From a bacterium (GTDB lineage Bacteria > SZUA-182 > DTGQ01 > JBLIRR01): a stretch of DNA of 64,000 nt. Below the pieces are notes generated by a model. That model was given only the letters and a program-made list of their open reading frames with translations, searched no databases and was not told where the DNA came from. Location: assembly GCA_049472395.1 (NCBI GenBank), contig JBLIRR010000009.1:59710-123709 (forward strand), in the 5' to 3' direction. Each line of letters begins with the position of its first letter. The first letter of the stretch is position 1. Shown one piece after another: positions 25,643 through 64,000 of the stretch. The position numbers and the translations under genes were made by a program.

Positions 25643-27001
25643 TTACATCATTGTTTTTGCTTTTTCATTCATCGAAGCTCTCTGTTGTAATTGTTTCTTA
25701 CTCTCCATCTTGTATATGGTGAAAGCAATATCTTCCGCGAGTTCTTTAAATAAACATTGCTCTTCCTTATCTTTTATCAGATACACAGAGGTGGAAACCG
25801 AAAATAATCCGTACACTGTGCCATTAAATTCAAGTCGTGTGGTCATTGCTCCCACATCACTGCAATCAGCTGCAAGCGGACAGAAAGGGCAGTCAGATGA
25901 GGGATTTTCGATGACCGTAATACCTTCATGGGAGAGGGATTTTTCTGCACAGGTGGGTAACGCGCCTTTCCCCAAAAGTTTTTTAAAGTATTGAAAATTT
26001 TTACTTTGACCTTGCCCTGTAATGAATGTAAAGTTATGGTGCTCATCCCACAGAGCTATCCATACGCTATGATAACAATGGGATTCCATAAGAGTGCTGC
26101 AAATCATTTGAATCATTTTTCTCATATTTTTTTCTTTGATACATTTCGTATGGATGCTGCGAATTTTGCTCAGAATCATATTTAGATGTCTGCTTTTCTC
26201 GTCACTTGGATAGGTGTAAAATATATTTCCCCTGATTTCAGGCTTTCTTCGTTGTGTGACATCACGGAAGATCAATACCATACCGCTAATATTTCCCTTT
26301 CCATCCTTAATGGGAGAGCCACTGTCATCAATAGGTATTTTTTTCTTTTTTTTATTTATTATTGACACATTATTCGCCACGCTCACAACCGAACCCTCTT
26401 TAAGCACTCTATTAAAAGGAATTTTAACAGATTCTCCCGTATCTTCATTGACCATTATTAATACCTCTTCGAGCAGTTTATCTTTTACTTCGGGCAGGTT
26501 CCACCCGGTGAGTTTTTCAGCCATAGGATTCATAAAGGAGATTTTTCCTGTTTTATCTGTAGTAATTACTGCATCGCCTATACTTTGCAAGGTAGTAAAG
26601 AGCCATGCCTCCTTCTCTTTTAATTGTTTTTCCATTTTATGTTTATAGAGAGCGGTTTCAATTACCCCATGGAGTTCTTTATATTGAAAAGGTTTAAAAA
26701 TAAAGCCATACGGCTCGGATTGAATCATTTCTTGCAGTGTAGTATCGTCAGCATAACCCGTCACAAAAACGATAGGAATATCAAAATCACTATGTATCAA
26801 ATGAGCAGCTTCAATACCATTCATTTCACCTTTCAGTTTGATATCCATGAGTATAAGATGCGGAGGATTTTCTTTCACCTGTTTTACCGCATCTTCCCCT
26901 GACGACACAATTGCGGAGACCTCATATCCGAGAAACTGCAGGCATCTTTTATAGTCTTCTGCGACTATAAGTTCATCCTCAACGACCATGATTTTATTCA
27001 T
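25643..27001 (-). CDS. Response regulator with receiver - PAS - Cys-rich GAF-like C-terminal domain
   Basis: Receiver IMVVEDE...LILMDIKLKGEMNG...VFVTGY. PAS ends VLIFRDVTQRRK. The C-terminal region carries CxxC...C motifs. Confidence 0.7.
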   Translation of the reverse strand: MNKIMVVEDELIVAEDYKRCLQFLGYEVSAIVSSGEDAVKQVKENPPHLILMDIKLKGEMNGIEAAHLIHSDFDIPIVFVTGYADDTTLQEMIQSEPYGFIFKPFQYKELHGVIETALYKHKMEKQLKEKEAWLFTTLQSIGDAVITTDKTGKISFMNPMAEKLTGWNLPEVKDKLLEEVLIMVNEDTGESVKIPFNRVLKEGSVVSVANNVSIINKKKKKIPIDDSGSPIKDGKGNISGMVLIFRDVTQRRKPEIRGNIFYTYPSDEKSRHLNMILSKIRSIHTKCIKEKNMRKMIQMICSTLMESHCYHSVWIALWDEHHNFTFITGQGQSKNFQYFKKLLGKGALPTCAEKSLSHEGITVIENPSSDCPFCPLAADCSDVGAMTTRLEFNGTVYGLFSVSTSVYLIKDKEEQCLFKELAEDIAFTIYKMESKKQLQQRASMNEKAKTMM

Positions 27002-46811: not shown

Positions 46812-47456
46812 ATGCAAAAGATTGTAGAATTAATTTTAGAAAAAAGTCCAGTTGACTATATTACAACAGATTTGTTGCATATGATTTTAGGGGGATCAAA
46901 AGATAGGTTATATAGTATTGTGAAACGAGCTTTAGCTTCAAAGGACTTGGTGAGAGTGCGTAGAGGACTTTATGTTCTTGGCGAAAAATACCGTCGTTTT
47001 AAAATTTCGGAAGTCATTTTGTCTCAAAGAATTTATTCTCCTTCATATTTAAGCTTTGAATATGCGTTATCATTTCATGGATTGATTCCGGATATAGTTC
47101 AAAGAGTATTATCCGCCTCATATTATAGATCACAAGTATTTGAAACTCAGGTTGGGATTTATGAATACTATCATATTCCTTTAAAACCATTTTTTTTAGG
47201 TGTCCAAAGGCATAAAAATCAATTTGGAAATGGATTCTTGATTGCTGGACCAGAACGAGCGCTTTGTGATTTGATTTATAAAAAGAAAATAAAATGGGTA
47301 AATATATCTGTACTTGTGCAGGGTTATAGAGTTGAAGAAGAAGAACTATTAAAATTTAATCAAAAATTATTAATTGATGTTGCTGATAATTATCCTGTGA
47401 TTTTTGTTAAGAAATTTATTAACAAATTAGTGAAGGAAATTAATAATGTCTTATAG
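46812..47456 (+). CDS. AbiEi-family type IV antitoxin (wHTH + C-terminal domain)
   Basis: About 214 aa, directly upstream of an AbiEii-like gene and overlapping it by 11 bp. The N-terminal region is compatible with a winged helix. Family-level call from gene context and length. Confidence 0.55.
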   Translation: MQKIVELILEKSPVDYITTDLLHMILGGSKDRLYSIVKRALASKDLVRVRRGLYVLGEKYRRFKISEVILSQRIYSPSYLSFEYALSFHGLIPDIVQRVLSASYYRSQVFETQVGIYEYYHIPLKPFFLGVQRHKNQFGNGFLIAGPERALCDLIYKKKIKWVNISVLVQGYRVEEEELLKFNQKLLIDVADNYPVIFVKKFINKLVKEINNVL

Positions 47457-48294
47457 GTCACTGATTGAGGAGCGTCTACGAGAATCTGAATACCGATCTG
47501 AATTAGAAGAAGAGAATGCATTAAAACAAATCTTTCAAGAAATTATTTTATATGCACTTTATGAAGCCCGATTTTTTAATATTGCGGCATTCCATGGTGG
47601 GACAGAACTTCGGATTTTAAGAAATTCGAATAGATTCTCAGAAGATTTAGATTTTGCGTTGTATGTAAAAAACAAAGCATTTGATTTTTCTCTTATGACA
47701 AAACAGGTTAAAGAAAGTTTGTTCAACTGGGAGGTAGAAATGGAGGTTATTGATAAGTCAAAAGCAGGCAATGTTATAAAAAAAATGTTGCTAAAAGATA
47801 CTTCCATGGCTAAGTTACTGATTCTTAATCCTCTATATGATAAACGAAAAACTGTAAGCGTTAAGGTTGAATTAGATACACATCCCCCAGAAGGAATTAA
47901 CACCGAAATTAAATACTTAGAATATCCTGTTACATTTCCTGTGACAAGCTTCGACTTATCTACAAGTTTTTCTGGTAAGTTACATGCATTATTATGTAGA
48001 AATTATATCAAGGGACGTGATTGGTATGATTTTATTTGGTACACCCAAAAAAAACCTGAATTAAACATTAAATTTATTAGAAATGCATTTTTTCAACAAG
48101 GCCCATGGGAAAAACAGAATATTGAGATAGATAAAGAATGGATTATAGAAAAATTGAAACAAAAGATCAATGAGATAGATTGGAAACAGGCAAAAGAGGA
48201 TGTCCGACCATTTTTGAAGCATGATTATGTTGGAGGACTTGAACACTGGAGTAAAGCATATTTTCAACAAGCCCTTATGAGATTATATGAGTAA
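47446..48294 (+). CDS. AbiEii/AbiGii-family nucleotidyltransferase toxin (DUF1814)
   Basis: FHGGTELRILRNSNRFSEDLDF matches the conserved GG[ST]xL...R.S.DlDf nucleotidyltransferase core of AbiEii. Confidence 0.75.
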   Translation: MSYRSLIEERLRESEYRSELEEENALKQIFQEIILYALYEARFFNIAAFHGGTELRILRNSNRFSEDLDFALYVKNKAFDFSLMTKQVKESLFNWEVEMEVIDKSKAGNVIKKMLLKDTSMAKLLILNPLYDKRKTVSVKVELDTHPPEGINTEIKYLEYPVTFPVTSFDLSTSFSGKLHALLCRNYIKGRDWYDFIWYTQKKPELNIKFIRNAFFQQGPWEKQNIEIDKEWIIEKLKQKINEIDWKQAKEDVRPFLKHDYVGGLEHWSKAYFQQALMRLYE

Positions 48295-48510
48295 TAATTT
48301 AATGTCGCATTCGAATATCGAATGGGGTCAGACTGCTCTTTTCCATTATGAATATTTGATATCAGGCAGACAGGCACATCAGTATTATTCAACTGGTATG
48401 AATCCTGCCAAAAAATACTTGTTTCTTCCTCGTTCCCCTTCAGCGATTAGAATTCTTTTTTTCATTACCATGAGTCATCTTGGAATGATAAATCACTGTC
48501 CCAGTCTCTT

Positions 48511-48882
48511 CATTTCTCTCACCTTATCGTACTTGAAAATGTCATATTCTGTCTTCAACTTGAAAAATTCACTCTCACCGGACGTCTCCTAAGGCCCATC
48601 CACTTTCGGAAAAAGTCATCGGAACCCGTGTTATTGTCCTTTCTCCATATTATCACACTGATTGTGAAGAGTGTGAAGGCTCAAAGATAGTAACAGATAA
48701 GGCCATTTCAGGGAGCTACCCCAAACCGACTGATTTTAAATATACCCCAGAATTTAATGAGTTGCTTAAACAGATACGAAGAGATGGCCTCGATCCATCC
48801 CACAGACATCATATCAGTCAATTCGACCTAAGCCACGCTGATTCTTACCGTTCAGTGACACCCGATGAATGGAGAAGATAAA
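48511..48882 (+). pseudogene. Degenerate, internally deleted duplicate of the 3' end of the ABC ATPase gene (45750..46673)
   Basis: 48511-48618 is about 90% identical to 46025-46133, and 48619-48882 is about 90% identical to 46408-46676, with about 274 bp of intervening gene sequence missing. By-eye alignment in the sequence. Confidence 0.7.
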
Positions 48883-48902
48883 TAAGGAATTTTACGGACC
48901 CA

Positions 48903-49352
48903 TTACTGTAATAGAGCCCAGCTTAAATAGACATCGGGTGTACCATAAACAAATGTTGGATACTCGGACTGGGCATAGGGAAAGGTAATCCCAGGCAAAG
49001 TCGTATATGAAAATGTAGTTTCATAAGGAGAGCTTGGATAGGGATACGTCGGAATACCGGTGGTGGTGTATAACCCTGTTATATCAGGGGGCAGAAAAGG
49101 GCTGAATGTAGAGAATCCGAGCAGAGTTCCATTGATACTATTGAAATATGCATAAAAATAATAAGGACGCATGGTCTGTTGTAATAAAATAAAAGCTAAA
49201 GGCGCAGGGAGAATATCGAAGGGTGGCCAAATGATTATTGGCCAGGGCTCGATAGAGTATTGTCCCCGGACATTTGATCCGGGTGTTAAGGCGAAAACAC
49301 TCATAACTATAACAATTATTATGGCGGCTTTAAAGAATTTATAATTATGCAT
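48903..49352 (-). CDS. Small secreted P/Y/W-rich protein (possible distant relative of the LPPYNTLWPLWSP family)
   Basis: Signal peptide. PWPIIIWPPFDILPAP. Tyr/Pro-rich C-terminus. Confidence 0.45.
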   Translation of the reverse strand: MHNYKFFKAAIIIVIVMSVFALTPGSNVRGQYSIEPWPIIIWPPFDILPAPLAFILLQQTMRPYYFYAYFNSINGTLLGFSTFSPFLPPDITGLYTTTGIPTYPYPSSPYETTFSYTTLPGITFPYAQSEYPTFVYGTPDVYLSWALLQ

Positions 49353-49514
49353 ACGTTCTCCTCATCTTTTTGTGTATTATGCGTACTTTGTCAGAAAAAA
49401 ATAAAAAAATCTTTCTACTGAATAGTATAGTTCTCATTATATCATAGAAAGGGTATATATTAGAGAAAATGTTTTTATTATTTTTTAGCCCTTTTTGAAA
49501 AAAGGGAGAGAAGG

Positions 49515-49961
49515 TTATGGAAATATTAATATATTATTGGTAATTCCCTTTATACCGTAAACAGTGCAAGCCAGTTCTTCTATCAGATATTTCTCCCACA
49601 ATTGCTGAACATGTCCTTCAAGTGTTACCCATCGGTTATTTATTAAAACCTCGATATGATAAATATCAATATCTGCATACAATTTAAGAACATTGATAAG
49701 ATTTGATTTCAGATTCGCGTCATCCGGCAGCACCTCTGTGCTCGGATATTGAACCACTATATTATTAATGACGCGCGAGACTCCTAGTATATGCGAGGCA
49801 TAGACTTCAGCCTTATGCGAGGCTAAATAACCGAATACGGCGCCTGACAATGTCACTTGCCCATCTTTAACAGCGACCTTAACATTGGCGAGATCGACCT
49901 GGCCGTCCTGACAAAGACGATCTATGAGTACTTTTTTGATGTGTTGATCTAGGCGAGACAT
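49515..49961 (-). CDS. Tandem BON-domain protein (OsmY-like), no signal peptide
   Basis: Two repeats of the BON pattern (...VKVAVKDGQVTLSGAV... / ...IEVLINNRWVTLEGHV...). Confidence 0.5.
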   Translation of the reverse strand: MSRLDQHIKKVLIDRLCQDGQVDLANVKVAVKDGQVTLSGAVFGYLASHKAEVYASHILGVSRVINNIVVQYPSTEVLPDDANLKSNLINVLKLYADIDIYHIEVLINNRWVTLEGHVQQLWEKYLIEELACTVYGIKGITNNILIFP

Positions 49962-50532
49962 AGTTATCCCTTTTCCCTTATTCTTTCTCTTCTCGGAGGT
50001 ATTATTCTCTTTTCTATTTTCAGGATCTTAACATACTATTTAAAAAATTATTATATATAATGATTAAATTCTCATCAATTGTTTATTGCCTCTTTTATTT
50101 GACTTTTTACTACCTGTTATATGAATACATCCTTATCTTTCAATGTATGATTCTTATAACAATAGTAAGACGTATTCATTGTCGAAGTTCAATTTTCCAT
50201 TGATTATTCGTACACTCATTTATAGCAATTGTAATATCAATTAAACCGTCGAATAATTTTTTATCGCTCCACCACCCAACAAATAGCCGGAATCCCTTGT
50301 ATATCTAAGAGTACGCCATAATGAGATTGCTGATATTTCAGTTACTGTGTTGAAAAATTATCAATAATTATATATAATTCTATTATTAAAAACAAAGAAC
50401 ACATTACTTCTCTTACCGTTATTCGTATGAGTTCGAAGCCTTGAATGTTGAACCTATGAACGTCCAGGAAAAACAGAAGAGAAAGCAGGGGAGGGGCATT
50501 ATGAGGAAAATAAAAAATGAGATCAAGAGTAT

Positions 50533-58209: not shown

Positions 58210-58489
58210 AAATCATAATTATATAGAGGCGATTTTTTTTTTCAAGAAAGATGATAATTTTTTCGCAATTTTCATTTTGGATTATAGATTATATAAGAAA
58301 TGCCGGCAATTTTTCAGGCATTTTTTTTGCATAAAATTTTTTTTAGTACTTAGAAAATGAAAGAATAGTATAATTTCGTTGTCTTTTCATAAAAGATTAA
58401 AGTAACAAATAGCGCATGAGCGCATGACTTTTTTGTTAAAATTAATAAATAAAATGTATATATACATTTCAAAAAAAGGGGCGGAGAGA

Positions 58490-61400
58490 ATGATTAAAAG
58501 AATCAAAAAAATAATAGCATCTATATTTATTTTAAGTTGTATTTTTTTTATTTTTTCAGGAGCATTGCATGCACAATTCTTTGGATTTGATCAATTTATT
58601 ACAAATACGACAAATACTAATATATTTACTTCTACATCATGGCCTTTATTCCAGACTGCGACCACTCAACCTGTTAATTCGTTGTTGTTCATTAATTCCA
58701 TTTTTCCCCAGTCTCCCTTCCCGCAGAATACTAGCCTGAGTTCTTTATTTCCTCAAACTAATCAGCTCTTCTCTAACTGGCCAGTGACTTCCATAACTCC
58801 CATAACCTTCCCTACACTCTCAACCTCGCTCCTTCCTTCATGGTTCTCTCCTTTTGACCGAGGGGGGTGGAACTGGCCACAAGATATAGCCCAAATTGAG
58901 ATTGAGCAGGTGATCAATGAATCATTCGATGAGCAATCGATTTATTTGACTCAGGGAAATTTGATCAGGATTGAGCTTACGGCCAATCCCAGCACCGGCT
59001 ATCAATGGCAAGGAGAGTGGGATAAATCAAAGCTGTCTCTCCATGACCATTTCAATATAATCCCGTCGTCTGTTGGATTGTTGGGTGCAAGTGGGAAGGA
59101 GGTATGGATATTTAAAGCTCTCGCTTTGGGGAAAACAGAAATTTCCTTTGAGTATAAGCGACCATGGAATTTTTATGCTGCTCCTTTAAAGGAGCTCGTG
59201 TTTACTATCATTATCCATGCTGAAGGAAGTATGAATGATCTTGTGGGCAAGGACTCTGACTTTGTGTCCGCGGGCACCGAGAGCCCTGTGTATGGTGCAT
59301 ATGGAAGCGCAATGTACAGTGCAAACGCGACCGCTGCTCCGGAAGCAGCTTTAAGAGATGACCAGGCCCAGATTGCCAGGGAGATTGAAGAGGCTGATAT
59401 AATAAAGATTGAGGGAACGTATCTTTATTTACTGAATAGGTACCGTGGCTTGATAATTTGCAATATTGCAAATCCCCGCAAGCCTTCGATGGAAGGGAGA
59501 ACCCCAATTCCCTCAGGTGATCCCAAGGATATGTATATTGATGGCACTCGTGCCTACATCATAGTCAATTCAGTGAATAGTGAGCTTTCCTATACAACGG
59601 ATCTTTTTGATAATGAAAGCGCAAGTGATCCTTTCATTCCCCCTTCACAACAATCAAGCAGCATTGTAATAGTTAATATATCGAATAAATCGAATCCTCA
59701 CGTAATAACCACCATTGACGTGGAAGGCACTGTAACAGACTCCCGCATTGTCGGAAACATTTTATATGTGGTTTCCTCCGAATACCCTTTATACTATTAT
59801 GCTCAACCACTACCTGTTGCAGTCTTAGAGGGAACTACAACCAGCACGGCACCTGTTGATATTGCTGTTCCTTTGAATGTTGGGATCGGCGAGGCGGTAG
59901 CTATTGAAGTTGTCGCCGGTGAAGGAGTAGCGGTTGGATCTATGGATTCTGAAATGGATGAGAGCATCCCGGAGAGAACCGAACACACTATCCATGTGAC
60001 CTCAATTGATATCTCAAGTGCCGCGAATACGCGAGTTGTCGATCGTCTTGATTTTATCGGCTATACCAACTATATTCATGTCACGGACAAGGCAATATTT
60101 ATCGAATCATACAATAATTCTTACCGTGACGCGAGCACCACTATCACCTTTGTAGACATTTCAGATCATTACGGTGCCATTGAGGAGAGGGGTTCAGTCC
60201 AGATTCCAGGTAGTGTAAAAGATAAATTCAAGATGGATTACTATGATGGCTATTTAAGGGTATGTACCTATAAATGGGACAATGAGGGCGGGGTGAGCAT
60301 TCTCTCTATAATAGATGTGCGCAATCCTGATCGCTTAAATGTAGTAAGTGAGGTGCCAGTGGGACGAGGTGAACAACTCTTCGCCACACGATTCGACGGG
60401 GAGCGTGGCTACCTTGTAACCTTTGAACGGATTGATCCCCTCTGGGTAATTGATCTGAGCAACCCACGTGAGCCTCGAATCGAAGGAGAACTGGAGATAC
60501 CAGGATGGTCAACACACATCGAACCTCGGGGTGAGCGGCTCATTGCGTTGGGAGTAGATGATACAATCGGCCGCAAGGTGTCAGTGTCCCTTTTTGATGT
60601 AAGTGATATGAAGGACCCCCAGCTCATGAGGCGCGTATCATTCGGTGAGGGCAATGGGTGGAGCTCCTCCACAGCCTATGGGGATGTGAAGGCATTAACC
60701 GTGATAGATGATTCGGGATTGATTCTTCTCCCCTATTCTACATCAGTTACTACAGGCGGGAGGTATACCCAGGATCATAGATTGCAGCTTATTGACTTCT
60801 CATATGATGATATAGAGGCGCGCGGCTGGGTGAGCCAGAAGGGCAGTGTCCAGAGAAGCCGCAATATTGCTAACTATCTCTTTTCCGTGTCTCTCGATGA
60901 ACTTCAGGTTATTGATGCAACCAATCGGGATAAACCAGAGATCATCAGTTCACTCCCCTTGGCGCGCAATAGTATAGATTTTGTAGCCCTTAACAATGGC
61001 TATGGCGTGCATTTGACAACCGACGATTACAGCAGCTATTCCCTAAGCGCCGTCCCGCTCTCTGATCCGGAAGACGGAACGGTGATCAGCAGAATTGACC
61101 TTGATGCTCAGAGCACACCCTCTCTTATCGCAAATGGAAACATGGTCTATGTCATAATGACAGAGTATAACACCTACTATCCTTATGGTGTAGAGCCGGC
61201 CATCCCCGTCGTAGATATAGCTGTAAACACAATGGAGGTATCCACGGAGCCGGCGGAACCTTCACGACAGGCAGGTATCACAACGACAGAACCGATGGTC
61301 TTTGCAGCAAATCCGGTCGTCAATTCAACCGAGCCGTCCGTCGGTTCAACCTCAGCGAGTGCTGTGTCCCCATCAGTGGATATAGAAGCTATTGCACCGC

Positions 61401-62476
61401 CGGAGAAGTATTATCCTGTTGCCATGACAACAGTGCAAATTTATGATTTTAGCACTATTACAAGGCCTCGAAAACGAGGCTTTTTAGAGGTCCCGGGGAC
61501 CTATTACGGTCTAAGGGCACGAGGGGAAGCTCTTCCTGTGCATTCATCATCGTATAGCAATTATAATATTATCCAGATTGCCAGTGATGTGCTTGTATTT
61601 AATAAAGCCGAGCCATACTATTATGGGGATAGATACTATATCGCTGCTGAAGGCCCCACTGATGATTCGGCAGATATGGAGGAATTTAGAGGATTGTTGG
61701 TTGTCGATCTTTCAAATCCCGACAAACCGGAATTGGCAGCCCAGGTCCCATATGGTGACATTAATCCCAGGTCACTTTTTGCTGAGGATGAAATACTCTA
61801 TTACTCCTACAGTCGCGACATTAAAGAAGAGGATCAGAAGCGGCCCCAAAGCAAGTATTATTTGGCGAGAGTAAACCTGGCTGATCCTTCTCATCCTTAC
61901 GAGTTTCACCATATTAATATACCAGGATACTGTGTTGGCCTGAATAATTCAGGGGAGTTTGCCTATACAATCAACATTGAGTGGTCGGATGAGGAAGAAG
62001 ATTCCTGGTATCAGGATTATTCATTTAATGTGGTAAAGATTGTGGATGATACAGCTTACTTGTTCGATACGATCCCACTGGACGGCCAGTGGTATAATAC
62101 GATCATTGACAGCGGGTATGCGTACCTTTCCGGATCAGGAGGATATGTGCGGTATTATGACAGTATGCAGTATGGCGCCATCCGCGCTCCATACTATGGC
62201 GGGTATGGTGAATTTATAATTATTGATCTTTCAAATCCGGAAAACCTCGTTGAATATAAACATTCACCCAGCGGAGGGAGCTTTGATATATTTGCTGCGA
62301 GAAACCATTCTCTCTTTGCCCGGGTAAATGGGGGACTCGCCTGCTACGACGTTGCTGATCCGGAGCACCCAAACCTTGAGGAATCAAGACAGGGCTATTC
62401 TTCTACCATTGTATTTTTAAACAATAAAGCATATCTCCCCCTTGGCTATTATGGCCTATGGGTGAAAGGTTTATAA
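58490..62476 (+). CDS. Very large secreted protein: signal peptide - chagasin-like (I42) peptidase-inhibitor domain - extended beta-propeller region (paralog of 22334..24514)
   Basis: Start at ATG 58490 (RBS GGGGCGGAGAG), preferred over the ORF-track start 58424. Signal peptide ...GALHAQ. All three chagasin loops are present: NPSTGYQW, LGASGKE, KRPWN. Downstream region is collinear with the 726-aa beta-propeller protein. Confidence 0.75.
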   Translation: MIKRIKKIIASIFILSCIFFIFSGALHAQFFGFDQFITNTTNTNIFTSTSWPLFQTATTQPVNSLLFINSIFPQSPFPQNTSLSSLFPQTNQLFSNWPVTSITPITFPTLSTSLLPSWFSPFDRGGWNWPQDIAQIEIEQVINESFDEQSIYLTQGNLIRIELTANPSTGYQWQGEWDKSKLSLHDHFNIIPSSVGLLGASGKEVWIFKALALGKTEISFEYKRPWNFYAAPLKELVFTIIIHAEGSMNDLVGKDSDFVSAGTESPVYGAYGSAMYSANATAAPEAALRDDQAQIAREIEEADIIKIEGTYLYLLNRYRGLIICNIANPRKPSMEGRTPIPSGDPKDMYIDGTRAYIIVNSVNSELSYTTDLFDNESASDPFIPPSQQSSSIVIVNISNKSNPHVITTIDVEGTVTDSRIVGNILYVVSSEYPLYYYAQPLPVAVLEGTTTSTAPVDIAVPLNVGIGEAVAIEVVAGEGVAVGSMDSEMDESIPERTEHTIHVTSIDISSAANTRVVDRLDFIGYTNYIHVTDKAIFIESYNNSYRDASTTITFVDISDHYGAIEERGSVQIPGSVKDKFKMDYYDGYLRVCTYKWDNEGGVSILSIIDVRNPDRLNVVSEVPVGRGEQLFATRFDGERGYLVTFERIDPLWVIDLSNPREPRIEGELEIPGWSTHIEPRGERLIALGVDDTIGRKVSVSLFDVSDMKDPQLMRRVSFGEGNGWSSSTAYGDVKALTVIDDSGLILLPYSTSVTTGGRYTQDHRLQLIDFSYDDIEARGWVSQKGSVQRSRNIANYLFSVSLDELQVIDATNRDKPEIISSLPLARNSIDFVALNNGYGVHLTTDDYSSYSLSAVPLSDPEDGTVISRIDLDAQSTPSLIANGNMVYVIMTEYNTYYPYGVEPAIPVVDIAVNTMEVSTEPAEPSRQAGITTTEPMVFAANPVVNSTEPSVGSTSASAVSPSVDIEAIAPPEKYYPVAMTTVQIYDFSTITRPRKRGFLEVPGTYYGLRARGEALPVHSSSYSNYNIIQIASDVLVFNKAEPYYYGDRYYIAAEGPTDDSADMEEFRGLLVVDLSNPDKPELAAQVPYGDINPRSLFAEDEILYYSYSRDIKEEDQKRPQSKYYLARVNLADPSHPYEFHHINIPGYCVGLNNSGEFAYTINIEWSDEEEDSWYQDYSFNVVKIVDDTAYLFDTIPLDGQWYNTIIDSGYAYLSGSGGYVRYYDSMQYGAIRAPYYGGYGEFIIIDLSNPENLVEYKHSPSGGSFDIFAARNHSLFARVNGGLACYDVADPEHPNLEESRQGYSSTIVFLNNKAYLPLGYYGLWVKGL

Positions 62477-62492
62477 GTCGTATAGATCCATA

Positions 62493-62539
62493 ATATGTGT
62501 TCCTGCACTGTCTGGGTAAGGCGGGGCAGGAACACATAT
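62493..62539 (+). terminator. Perfect 14-bp hairpin (ATATGTGTTCCTGC / GCAGGAACACATAT, 19-nt loop) 17 bp after the stop of the large gene
   Basis: Seen in the sequence. No U-tract follows, so it is not a canonical intrinsic terminator. Confidence 0.4.
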
Positions 62540-63059
62540 GAAAAAGATTATAGGAAATTCCTTTTATGATCCAAAATGTTTCATCCGCACCAGCATGCTC
62601 TTGTTCCTTATACCTTTAGGTTTCCGGCTAGCTGGTTAACCTAGAGTCATCTCCCTGACTCTCCTCGCTTTATGAGGTACACACAATAATGCCTGATGGC
62701 GCACGGCTAAATCCGCTATGACGCCAGCTGAGCAAATTGGCAATAATAGCATCGTTAAAAAGACGCCATGAAAATTCAAGAATTGAGCTTGCAGCATGGA
62801 AAATCATTGTAAAATTTCCTAATTAAGCTCGTACCGCGAAATTGCTAAACTCACTTACATTCAAACAGTTGCAATTTTCTTAATTTATAGGAATGTGTTA
62901 CAATTATCTTTAAGAGCGTGTCTGAAAAATATTTGTATGCCCTATGGACAAAAGGAAACCTCTAATATAAGATTAAATACGGTAAAAGAGTAAAATATAA
63001 GAACAGCGAAAAGAAATAGGGTGTTACTGAAAGGCATAAAGGAGGAAAGGGTAGCTCGA

Positions 63060-64000
63060 ATGTATAAGGTTTTTATCTCCAGTACTTATCTCGATAATAT
63101 ACAAAGACGGAAGGTTGTTCAGGATGCCATCACTGCGGCGAAAATGGTATGGCATGGTATGGAAATCTTTACTGCCAGCACACGGCCTACGGTAGAGGAA
63201 TGTCGCCGATGTGCAAAGGAGGCGGATCTGCTGGTGGGGATCATTGCCTGGCGTTATGGATGGGTGCCCGATGGTGAAGAAAGGTCCATAACCGAAATGG
63301 AATACGATGCTGCCAGGGATAAGTTGATGTTTCAACTGGACCCGAAGCTTCCGGTTAATCCTGATCAGGATTTTGATCCGGGAGAAGATCGATGGGATAA
63401 ACAGAAAAAGCTGGAGGCCTTTAAAAAACGTTTTGCCAAAGAGCAGATGCCTGCCTATTTCAGGGAAGAGACCTTGGGTCAGAAAGTCCTGGATGCTTTA
63501 AACAAGTGGAGGGAAGGTCGTGAGAAACAAACTGAAAAGAAGGGATGGAAGCGATCATCAAGGCCAAGCCAAGGCCCTTCCCGCAGCAAAAAAGAAAGAG
63601 AGGCTGAAGAGATAGCCTCATACTGCAAAAAAGTGGAATCCCTCCATGTGAATCTGCCGGTCGCCGGATTTGCCGAACATATTAAAGTTCCCATCGATAT
63701 TGAGGATCTCTACGTGCCCTTAAGGGCTATGATGGATTTAAGAGGCATTGCCGGAGAGATCTTTCATGATGCAGATCATGCTGAAAAGTGTCTCAGGGCC
63801 TGCAAAGGAGGCTGTGAGATTGCCCTTACCGACGCCTTTAAGCAGGCAGAATCACGCAAGCAGAAAGGGCTCGTCATTCTTGGTGATCCCGGATCAGGGA
63901 AAACCACCCACTTAAAATGTTTACTCCTGTGGTGCCTGCGAAAAGGGCCGCAGACCCTCGGCCTTCCTCCTGAAATGATCCCTGTGTTTTTACCTTTGAG
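63060..64000 (+). CDS. DUF4062-like N-terminal domain + P-loop (NACHT/STAND-type) NTPase, 3'-truncated by the window end (not in the ORF track because it has no stop)
   Basis: ATG at 63060 preceded by AAGGAGG (63039-63045). Open frame to 64000. MYKVFISSTYLDNIQRRKVV...ADLLVGIIAWRYGWVP resembles DUF4062. Walker A ILGDPGSGKTTHL at the end of the window. Confidence 0.6.
   Translation, partial: MYKVFISSTYLDNIQRRKVVQDAITAAKMVWHGMEIFTASTRPTVEECRRCAKEADLLVGIIAWRYGWVPDGEERSITEMEYDAARDKLMFQLDPKLPVNPDQDFDPGEDRWDKQKKLEAFKKRFAKEQMPAYFREETLGQKVLDALNKWREGREKQTEKKGWKRSSRPSQGPSRSKKEREAEEIASYCKKVESLHVNLPVAGFAEHIKVPIDIEDLYVPLRAMMDLRGIAGEIFHDADHAEKCLRACKGGCEIALTDAFKQAESRKQKGLVILGDPGSGKTTHLKCLLLWCLRKGPQTLGLPPEMIPVFLPL

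Follow-up and report, generated by a model that had tools for sequence, protein, structure and literature searches.

Three preprints from 2026 (including 10.64898/2026.09.04.749371 and 10.64898/2026.05.01.722283) establish DUF4062, named NIR in one of them, as a TIR-like NADase. They report that it acts as effector in an Avs2 protein and other NLR-like proteins, and also in the Swarozyc, Evangelion, Vulcan, and Vesta systems. The domain also precedes NACHT in the human proteins TEP1, NWD1, NWD2, and NPHP3. STAND-CLec/FGE sensors that are diversified by diversity-generating retroelements (DGRs) were described by Kaur et al. (eLife 2020; PMC7159879) and Dore et al. (PNAS 2024; PMC10907252), and FGE-sulfatase-like sensors on defense-associated STANDs were noted in a 2026 survey in Nature (PMC13581612). 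Neither Kaur et al. nor Dore et al. name DUF4062, and DGRs are unmentioned in the DUF4062 papers and in the Nature STAND paper. In the literature examined, the NADase (in 2026) and the STAND-CLec sensors targeted by DGRs (in 2020 and 2024) are treated separately, with neither a link between them nor an experimentally tested member of the exact family described here.

The window analyzed here is a stretch of 64,000 bp, the end of which cuts its last gene. The product of positions 63060 to 64000 is probably the N-terminal third of an NLR-like immune sensor made as a single polypeptide, with a NADase effector, a NACHT module, and an expected lectin-fold sensor, and this gene may be served by a DGR.

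Results

Gene start and upstream spacer

The following features were assigned at and upstream of the gene start.
62493 to 62539, plus strand: strong stem-loop with 21-nt arms (86% complementary), 17 nt after the stop codon of the upstream gene.
62540 to 63039, plus strand: noncoding spacer with nothing recognizable in scans.
63040 to 63051, plus strand: purine-rich ribosome-binding tract, AGGAGGAAAGGG, read directly from the sequence.
63060 to 64000, plus strand: partial coding sequence, the first 313 codons of a DUF4062(NIR)-NACHT protein (stop-free translation; best homologs 67% identical over 100% of the query).

The ATG at 63060 opens a frame that, in translation of the window sequence, was free of stop codons through base 63998, so that 313 of an expected ~970 codons are visible before the window end cuts the gene. 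The first-pass annotation had proposed a ribosome-binding site and this ATG at the head of a frame running off the window, and both parts of that proposal held. The sequence AGGAGG was located at 63040 to 63045, within the purine tract AGGAGGAAAGGG. The tract reaches 63051, leaving 8 nt to the ATG. From AGGAGG to the ATG the distance is 14 nt, which is rather far. An in-frame GTG at 63021 provides a weaker alternative start. The gene was indeed missing from the ORF track, as had been remarked, only because ORFs that run off the end of the source go unlisted.

The gene upstream stops at 62476, leaving a noncoding gap of 583 bp (62477 to 63059). A 520-bp leader at 62540 to 63059 had been proposed earlier; a long noncoding gap is present, but its size is 583 bp rather than 520 bp, and position 62540 is the base immediately following the hairpin with 21-bp arms at 62493 to 62539. 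The gap had also been called unusually long, but its size is not exceptional, since even larger gaps separate ORFs of 150 aa or more at other places in the window. RNA folding of positions 62477 to 62560 (84 nt) gave −36.3 kcal/mol (z = −8.4 versus 200 shuffles). No T-run follows the hairpin on either strand, and a terminator scan found no canonical site. The hairpin is likely the 3′ end or terminator of the upstream beta-propeller gene, which would place the boundary of the NACHT transcription unit there.

The spacer (GC content, 38.6%) presumably contains the promoter. Three promoter-like sites were found versus 2.6 expected. The spacer had no Rfam match at an E value of ≤1 (and the whole window had none at the gathering score). 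Repeat searches of the window yielded nothing significant, and none of the 105 related loci fetched for comparison resembled the spacer. Two small minus-strand ORFs within it (53 and 45 aa) had no Pfam match. A mobile element in the spacer was rejected on the basis of the absence of repeats, of similarity to related loci, and of Pfam matches to the small ORFs. Neither an RNA family, nor an excess of promoter or terminator motifs, nor repeats, nor conservation was thus found in support of the earlier suggestion that the leader holds regulatory RNA or promoter elements. Control of the toxic gene by a cis-regulatory RNA (riboswitch, attenuator, or sRNA) from the spacer is highly improbable. The 583-bp gap would be consistent with such an RNA, as would the gaps of 400 to 740 bp at several orthologous loci, where upstream gaps ranged from ~30 to 740 bp. 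However, other orthologs have gaps of just 30 to 200 bp, the sole strong structure abuts the stop codon of the upstream gene, and the spacer lacks Rfam matches, conservation across the 105 loci, terminator-like sites, and an excess of promoter-like sites.

N-terminal DUF4062/NIR domain

Two features were assigned to the N-terminal part of the protein.
63060 to 63554, plus strand: predicted TIR-like NADase effector domain (DUF4062/NIR), aa 1 to 165, from Pfam, a profile-structure match, and AlphaFold2/Foldseek.
63294 to 63296, plus strand: codon of Glu79 in the motif S-I-T-E-M-E-Y, predicted catalytic glutamate, from alignment with the FTE of KpSwz.

Residues 3 to 85 (63066 to 63314) matched Pfam DUF4062 (PF13271) with an E value of 1.9e-18 and 66.9 bits (cutoff, 24.7), and the match covered the full profile (positions 1 to 82 of 82). 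The family profile matched the solved structure of the KpSwz DUF4062 domain (10wc_A; E value, 2.5e-16; profile positions 10 to 162) and the structure of human TEP1 (11gz; E value, 1.5e-7), and the window protein alone matched KpSwz with an E value of 5.6e-5 (phmmer). An AlphaFold2 model of the window protein, built from 107 sequences, had a mean pLDDT of 87.6, with values of 87 to 98 over aa 1 to 160, most of them above 90. The top Foldseek matches of this model in the PDB were the TIR domains of TIR-STING, RPS4, SPARTA TIR-APAZ, SARM1, and AbTir, followed by SEFIR domains and nucleoside 2-deoxyribosyltransferases; the best matches had a probability of 1.00, with TM scores normalized to the target of up to 0.62. 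The modeled domain has a TIR-like or flavodoxin-like three-layer fold. The real domain is ~165 residues long, twice the length of the Pfam model.

In both the phmmer alignment and the profile alignment, the S-I-T-E79 of the window protein was aligned with the F-T-E of KpSwz, and in the family alignment E79 was conserved at 90% or more. The aligned glutamate of KpSwz (chain residue 82) corresponds to E97, as reckoned from a construct starting at residue 15/16. KpSwz E97 is required for NADase activity and defense (10.64898/2026.05.01.722283). By alignment, E79 is the predicted catalytic residue, equivalent to KpSwz E97 and PsAvs2 E108, and NADase activity is predicted for the window protein by homology.

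Linker and NACHT module

The remainder of the visible coding sequence was divided into two features.
63555 to 63824, plus strand: basic low-complexity linker (aa 166 to 176) followed by a conserved pre-NACHT segment (aa 177 to 255), from the pLDDT dip and conserved columns.
63825 to 64000, plus strand: start of the NACHT NTPase module, from the Walker A motif and the PF05729 matches of orthologs over the equivalent region.

The pLDDT dipped to 61 over aa 161 to 170. In the family alignment, conserved features of the pre-NACHT segment included Y188, LPVAGF, VPIDIEDLYVPL, and DADHAE. This segment and the NACHT module stay together in proteins that have another N-terminal domain, for which matches cover only aa ~170 to 313. 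The Walker A motif GDPGSGKTT spans aa 275 to 283 (63882 to 63908; Lys281), fits the pattern GxxxxGK[ST], and aligned with the P-loop of PF05729-positive homologs. The part of the NTPase in the window comprises ~39 to 45 residues, and the best Pfam match was nSTAND3 at 25.5 bits (cutoff, 27.2); STAND/AAA matches remained below threshold because no more than ~45 NTPase residues are present. In the orthologs, PF05729 was matched over the region equivalent to the NACHT start with E values of 1e-15 to 1e-18. The first-pass reading of an N-terminal DUF4062-like domain followed by the P-loop of a NACHT/STAND ATPase agrees with the Pfam match and with the homologs carrying both PF13271 and PF05729. 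Its further proposal that this is probably a defense gene of the NACHT/STAND kind is likewise in line with the 2026 work placing the DUF4062 NADase as an effector of Avs and NLR-like defense proteins.

Architecture and integrity of related genes

The best matches to the window protein were 67% identical in the protein search, 66% identical in the scan of GTDB genomes, and 67% identical over the whole fragment in the metagenome scan. When 1.84 billion cluster representatives were scanned exhaustively with HMMER, 129 matched with E values of ≤1e-30 and 879 with E values of ≤1e-10, and many matches covered aa ~170 to 313 only. Other N termini found on the same NACHT-FGE chassis were PNP_UDP_1, Metallophos (calcineurin-like phosphoesterase), TIR_2, or unknown domains. 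Head-swapping of this kind is a signature of the effector slot in NLR-like immune proteins, and DUF4062 therefore sits in the effector slot of this family.

Among the 105 related loci, 30 gene copies had an unbroken reading frame, most of them coding for 938 to 990 aa, and the intact orthologs were 41 to 67% identical to the window protein. The closest full-length orthologs were L080 (67%; 974 aa), L083 (64%; 986 aa), and L085 (63%; 973 aa), and L080 aligned end to end with L083 and other orthologs. All six scanned proteins of ~940 to 990 aa consisted of DUF4062 (1 to 85), NACHT (~260 to 425), and FGE-sulfatase (PF03781; ~743 to 970), the last with E values of 1e-49 to 1e-61. The orthologous ORFs run on to ~970 aa rather than ending shortly after the point at which the window cuts the gene, and they do not encode a housekeeping ATPase. 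TPR/WD or effector domains had been named at first as ones to look for at the C terminus; the orthologs instead end in an FGE-sulfatase/C-type-lectin-fold domain that is often diversified by a DGR. As expected from orthology, the window gene should code for ~660 more residues, comprising the rest of NACHT, a helical region, and the FGE-sulfatase/C-type-lectin fold.

It is unlikely that the same N terminus is joined in the window gene to another C terminus, either a second NTPase or TPR/WD40 repeats, with neither an FGE domain nor a DGR. One relative, L033 (60% identity over the N terminus), is an exception of this kind, coding for 1,719 aa with extra AAA/NACHT modules and without FGE. Modules are freely exchanged in the family, and fusions of DUF4062 to TPR (PsAvs2) and to WD40 (TEP1-like proteins) are known. 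The remaining intact relatives, from 41% to 67% identity, are nevertheless all 938 to 990 aa in length, and every one examined ends in FGE-sulfatase.

Searches against defense families with PADLOC, which had been recommended for the extended region, and with NCBIfam returned no significant match for the fragment, nor did PADLOC for four full-length orthologs, for which the only candidate was a weak match to PDC-S60 (3e-8). Neither the fragment nor these orthologs matched Avs in PADLOC, so membership in Avs1 to Avs4 was not supported.

Disrupted copies accounted for 22 of the 52 with enough sequence (~40%), namely, 3 with single nonsense codons, 13 with frameshifts, and 6 partial copies. The nonsense codons (TAG, TAA, and TGA) replaced Q, Y, C, W, or E. 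Read-through with selenocysteine or pyrrolysine in these relatives was rejected, since stops of all three kinds at unrelated positions are ordinary nonsense mutations. Frameshifts and internal deletions were found in Illumina as well as nanopore assemblies. This degree of disruption, the varied positions and codons of the nonsense mutations, and the frameshifts in Illumina assemblies would be consistent with decay of the window gene into a nonfunctional pseudogene, with a nonsense mutation, frameshift, or truncation past the window and none within the visible 313 codons. Such decay is considered somewhat unlikely for the window copy, in which the visible third of the gene has no defect, every invariant and nearly invariant family residue is kept (including E79 and the Walker A motif), and the ribosome-binding tract is present; part of the frameshifts in relatives are, moreover, probably nanopore assembly errors (MFD MAGs).

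Diversity-generating retroelements in orthologous loci

A motif scan identified DGR-type reverse transcriptases (RTs) directly downstream of the gene in L004, L009, L015, L026, L080, and L087, and an HMM made from five of these RTs added L016, L018, L089, L034, L014, and L036. The RTs carried IGNLTSQ/YMDD motifs and were confirmed as RVT_1 by Pfam. The 115-aa ORF preceding the RT was assigned by Pfam to bAvd, and the small ORF after the target gene to HRDC, in some loci. A second FGE-bearing gene often followed, such as an AAA_35-FGE gene in L004 and the gene bearing VR2 in L080.

The last ~125 nt of the target gene had a near-copy adjoining the RT, the template repeat (TR), with 80 to 91% identity. 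Mismatches between this TR and the variable repeat (VR) in the gene fell on TR adenines in 16 of 17 cases in L009, 11 of 11 in L021, 12 of 12 in L018, 16 of 17 in L004, 15 of 16 in L034, and 17 of 23 in L080. Judged from the aligned repeats, such adenine-restricted mismatches are the diagnostic TR/VR pattern of mutagenic retrohoming.

Of 32 orthologous loci that included the 3′ end of the gene and at least ~2 kb beyond it, or that showed DGR evidence on shorter flanks, 15 had a DGR, including the closest full-length ortholog, L080, and none was detected in the other 17. DGR-positive and DGR-negative loci were intermingled across the range of 41% to 67% identity with the window protein, which suggests that the association of DGR and gene is old and has often been lost.

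No RT, Avd, HRDC, TR, or FGE sequence was found anywhere in the 64-kb window (1 to 64000). The sole ORF in the window containing YxDD (25646 to 27001, minus strand) was rejected as an RT, being a response regulator with PAS domains. Any DGR serving the window copy would therefore be beyond base 64000, downstream of the gene, where the cassette is positioned in most relatives, and by analogy with these the window copy may be served by one. It is tentatively proposed, as a plausible rather than a probable reading, that the gene belongs to an as yet unnamed family of genes for NLR-like proteins that combine a DUF4062/NIR NADase as executioner with a lectin-fold sensor rewritten by a DGR, and that the window copy is served by a DGR just past 64000. 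If true, a hypermutable receptor would be wired straight to NAD+ depletion.

Genomic neighborhood

The upstream neighbor of the window gene encodes a secreted beta-propeller protein of 1,350 aa with a chagasin-type inhibitor domain, and the neighbors upstream are envelope genes (beta-propeller/chagasin, LpoB, and LPP20 lipoproteins) rather than defense genes. The nearest defense gene in the window, an AbiEii toxin gene, is 15 kb away. From the ORFs sampled, the wider window is rich in two-component, sigma-54, and radical-SAM genes, and it contained no tRNA or rRNA. Paralogous STAND-FGE genes were among the neighbors of orthologs, for instance a DUF4062-nSTAND1-FGE gene just upstream in L007, as was, in L083, a gene for a type I restriction R subunit. 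A conserved operon partner was sought by clustering neighboring ORFs over all loci, which recovered only the paralogous STAND-FGE genes and the DGR cassette.

The lack of a defense island around the window gene would also suit a regulated signaling or self/non-self switch, in which DUF4062 makes a nucleotide signal or acts as a scaffold without NAD+ depletion. TIR domains carry out NAD+ depletion, nucleotide signaling, and scaffolding in different systems, functional diversification of NIR domains was raised by the authors of 10.64898/2026.09.04.749371, and bacteria of multicellular habit show an enrichment of STAND-FGE systems (PMC10907252 and PMC7159879). A switch of this kind is nonetheless very unlikely: every DUF4062 domain tested so far hydrolyzes NAD+, yielding ADPR and nicotinamide, the window protein retains the catalytic Glu, and no gene for a signal-reading partner is conserved beside the orthologs.

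Discussion

Proposed mechanism and implications

In the preferred reading, that of an immune sensor with a NADase executioner, the visible parts would be the DUF4062/NIR TIR-like NADase effector (aa 1 to 165, with Glu79), the linker and pre-NACHT segment, and the first strand and P-loop of NACHT. Binding of an invader-derived ligand to the lectin-fold domain would release autoinhibition, whereupon the NACHT module would bind NTP and oligomerize, and the oligomer would activate the NADase and lead to abortive infection. By homology, this chain from ligand-triggered NACHT oligomerization to NADase activation and abortive infection is likely. Since the last ~125 nt of the gene are a DGR variable repeat in roughly half of the loci, sensor specificity in the DGR-bearing relatives would be reprogrammed by adenine-directed mutagenic retrohoming.

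An intact full gene would encode a compact NLR-type receptor that kills by NAD+ depletion. In the relatives, a receptor end that can be diversified by targeted hypermutation would represent the closest bacterial analog of an adaptive receptor joined to an innate executioner. The family, with 129 cluster representatives at E values of ≤1e-30, would offer a natural partner for the DUF4062/NIR effector, with ligand specificity that could be read from metagenomic VR variation, and it could make the ligands of DGR-diversified cytoplasmic sensors experimentally tractable. The yield of the window alone is modest, namely, the correct annotation of a truncated gene; the pairing of DUF4062 with DGRs is not established by the window alone.

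Comparison with known systems

PsAvs2 (10.64898/2026.09.04.749371) resembles the window protein in that a single polypeptide carries an N-terminal DUF4062 TIR-like effector, in which the catalytic Glu is conserved, and then a STAND NTPase. It differs in being an Avs2-type STAND with a TPR sensor for phage terminase, whereas the NTPase here is of the NACHT type and the orthologs carry an FGE-sulfatase/lectin-fold domain. The Swarozyc protein KpSwz (10wc, 11cq, and 11cv; 10.64898/2026.05.01.722283) is the closest solved homolog of the N-terminal domain and shares the S/T-x-T-E motif; unlike the window protein, it has no NTPase, binds the phage portal directly through a C-terminal auxiliary domain, and forms fiber-like assemblies.

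The human proteins TEP1 (11gz, matched at an E value of 1.5e-7), NWD1, NWD2, and NPHP3 share the order of DUF4062 and NACHT but have WD40 or TPR ends, function in vault, telomerase, or ciliary contexts, and are without FGE and DGR. The anti-phage bNACHT proteins (Kibby et al., 10.1101/2022.07.19.500537) have in common with this family a NACHT core, a swappable N-terminal effector, and a C-terminal sensor, although PADLOC returned only the weak PDC-S60 candidate for the orthologs.

The STAND-CLec "antigen sensors" of multicellular bacteria (PMC10907252 and PMC7159879) were described without DUF4062 being named as an effector, with many of their N termini termed "uncharacterised," and the DGR part of the window copy would be beyond the window. 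The orthologs share the layout of these sensors, with an N-terminal effector, NACHT, and a VR-bearing C-terminal FGE-type lectin fold, and their DGR systems likewise have the RT, accessory genes, and TR adjacent to the target gene, often together with a second FGE-bearing target.

Genomic surroundings of the DUF4062-NACHT gene

Two features lie upstream of the partial DUF4062-NACHT coding sequence:

58424-62476, beta-propeller gene (1350-aa product) with a chagasin-family peptidase inhibitor domain (I42) and a Beta_propel/LVIVD propeller
62493-62539, stem-loop

The combination of both domains in one 1350-aa protein is an unusual fusion. The stem-loop begins 17 nt 3' of the stop codon of this gene, occurs once in the window, and is highly stable, with the 84 nt around it folding at -36.3 kcal/mol (z = -8.4). 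No T-run was found beside it on either strand. The sole recognizable defense or toxin-antitoxin gene near the DUF4062-NACHT gene encodes AbiEii and is followed by an ORF-poor stretch:

46812-48294, AbiEii nucleotidyltransferase toxin gene (PF08843, E 4.6e-22) and an overlapping 214-aa ORF
48295-50532, ~2.2 kb with no ORF of at least 150 aa, tRNA, or Rfam family

The 214-aa ORF had no match in a Pfam search and is presumably the AbiEi partner.

Decay, architecture, and retroelement gene order among relatives

Relatives were examined in fetched loci (L-numbers; coordinates are those of each locus). Approximately 40% of the family copies examined were disrupted, and family members are often pseudogenes (loci L008, L019, L005, L011, L079, and L087; also L010 and L046), with either a single nonsense codon in an otherwise full-length alignment or copies duplicated in tandem with many frameshifts. 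Two loci contained the following architectures:

L007, 6887-9613 and 10001-12904, tandem DUF4062-headed STAND genes with FGE-sulfatase (FGE) domains
L033, 10001-15157, 1719-aa relative with a DUF4062-NACHT head

The tandem genes differ in NTPase clade (nSTAND1 versus NACHT), and no diversity-generating retroelement (DGR) was detectable within 8 kb. In the 1719-aa protein, further P-loop modules (AAA_22/AAA) replace the FGE domain.

DGR genes adjoining the DUF4062-NACHT-FGE target gene included the following:

L004, 3837-4343; L009, 4594-5091; L019, 13148-13534; L026, 13058-13564, small HRDC-domain protein (~128-168 aa)
L016, 1111-2420; L014, 3-737, reverse transcriptase directly upstream of the target gene

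The HRDC gene lies between the target gene and bAvd in all four loci, whose DGRs therefore have both HRDC and Avd accessory genes. The template repeat of L016 is also upstream of the target gene, along with the reverse transcriptase. The reverse transcriptase-then-target order of L016 and L014 is the opposite of the usual order.
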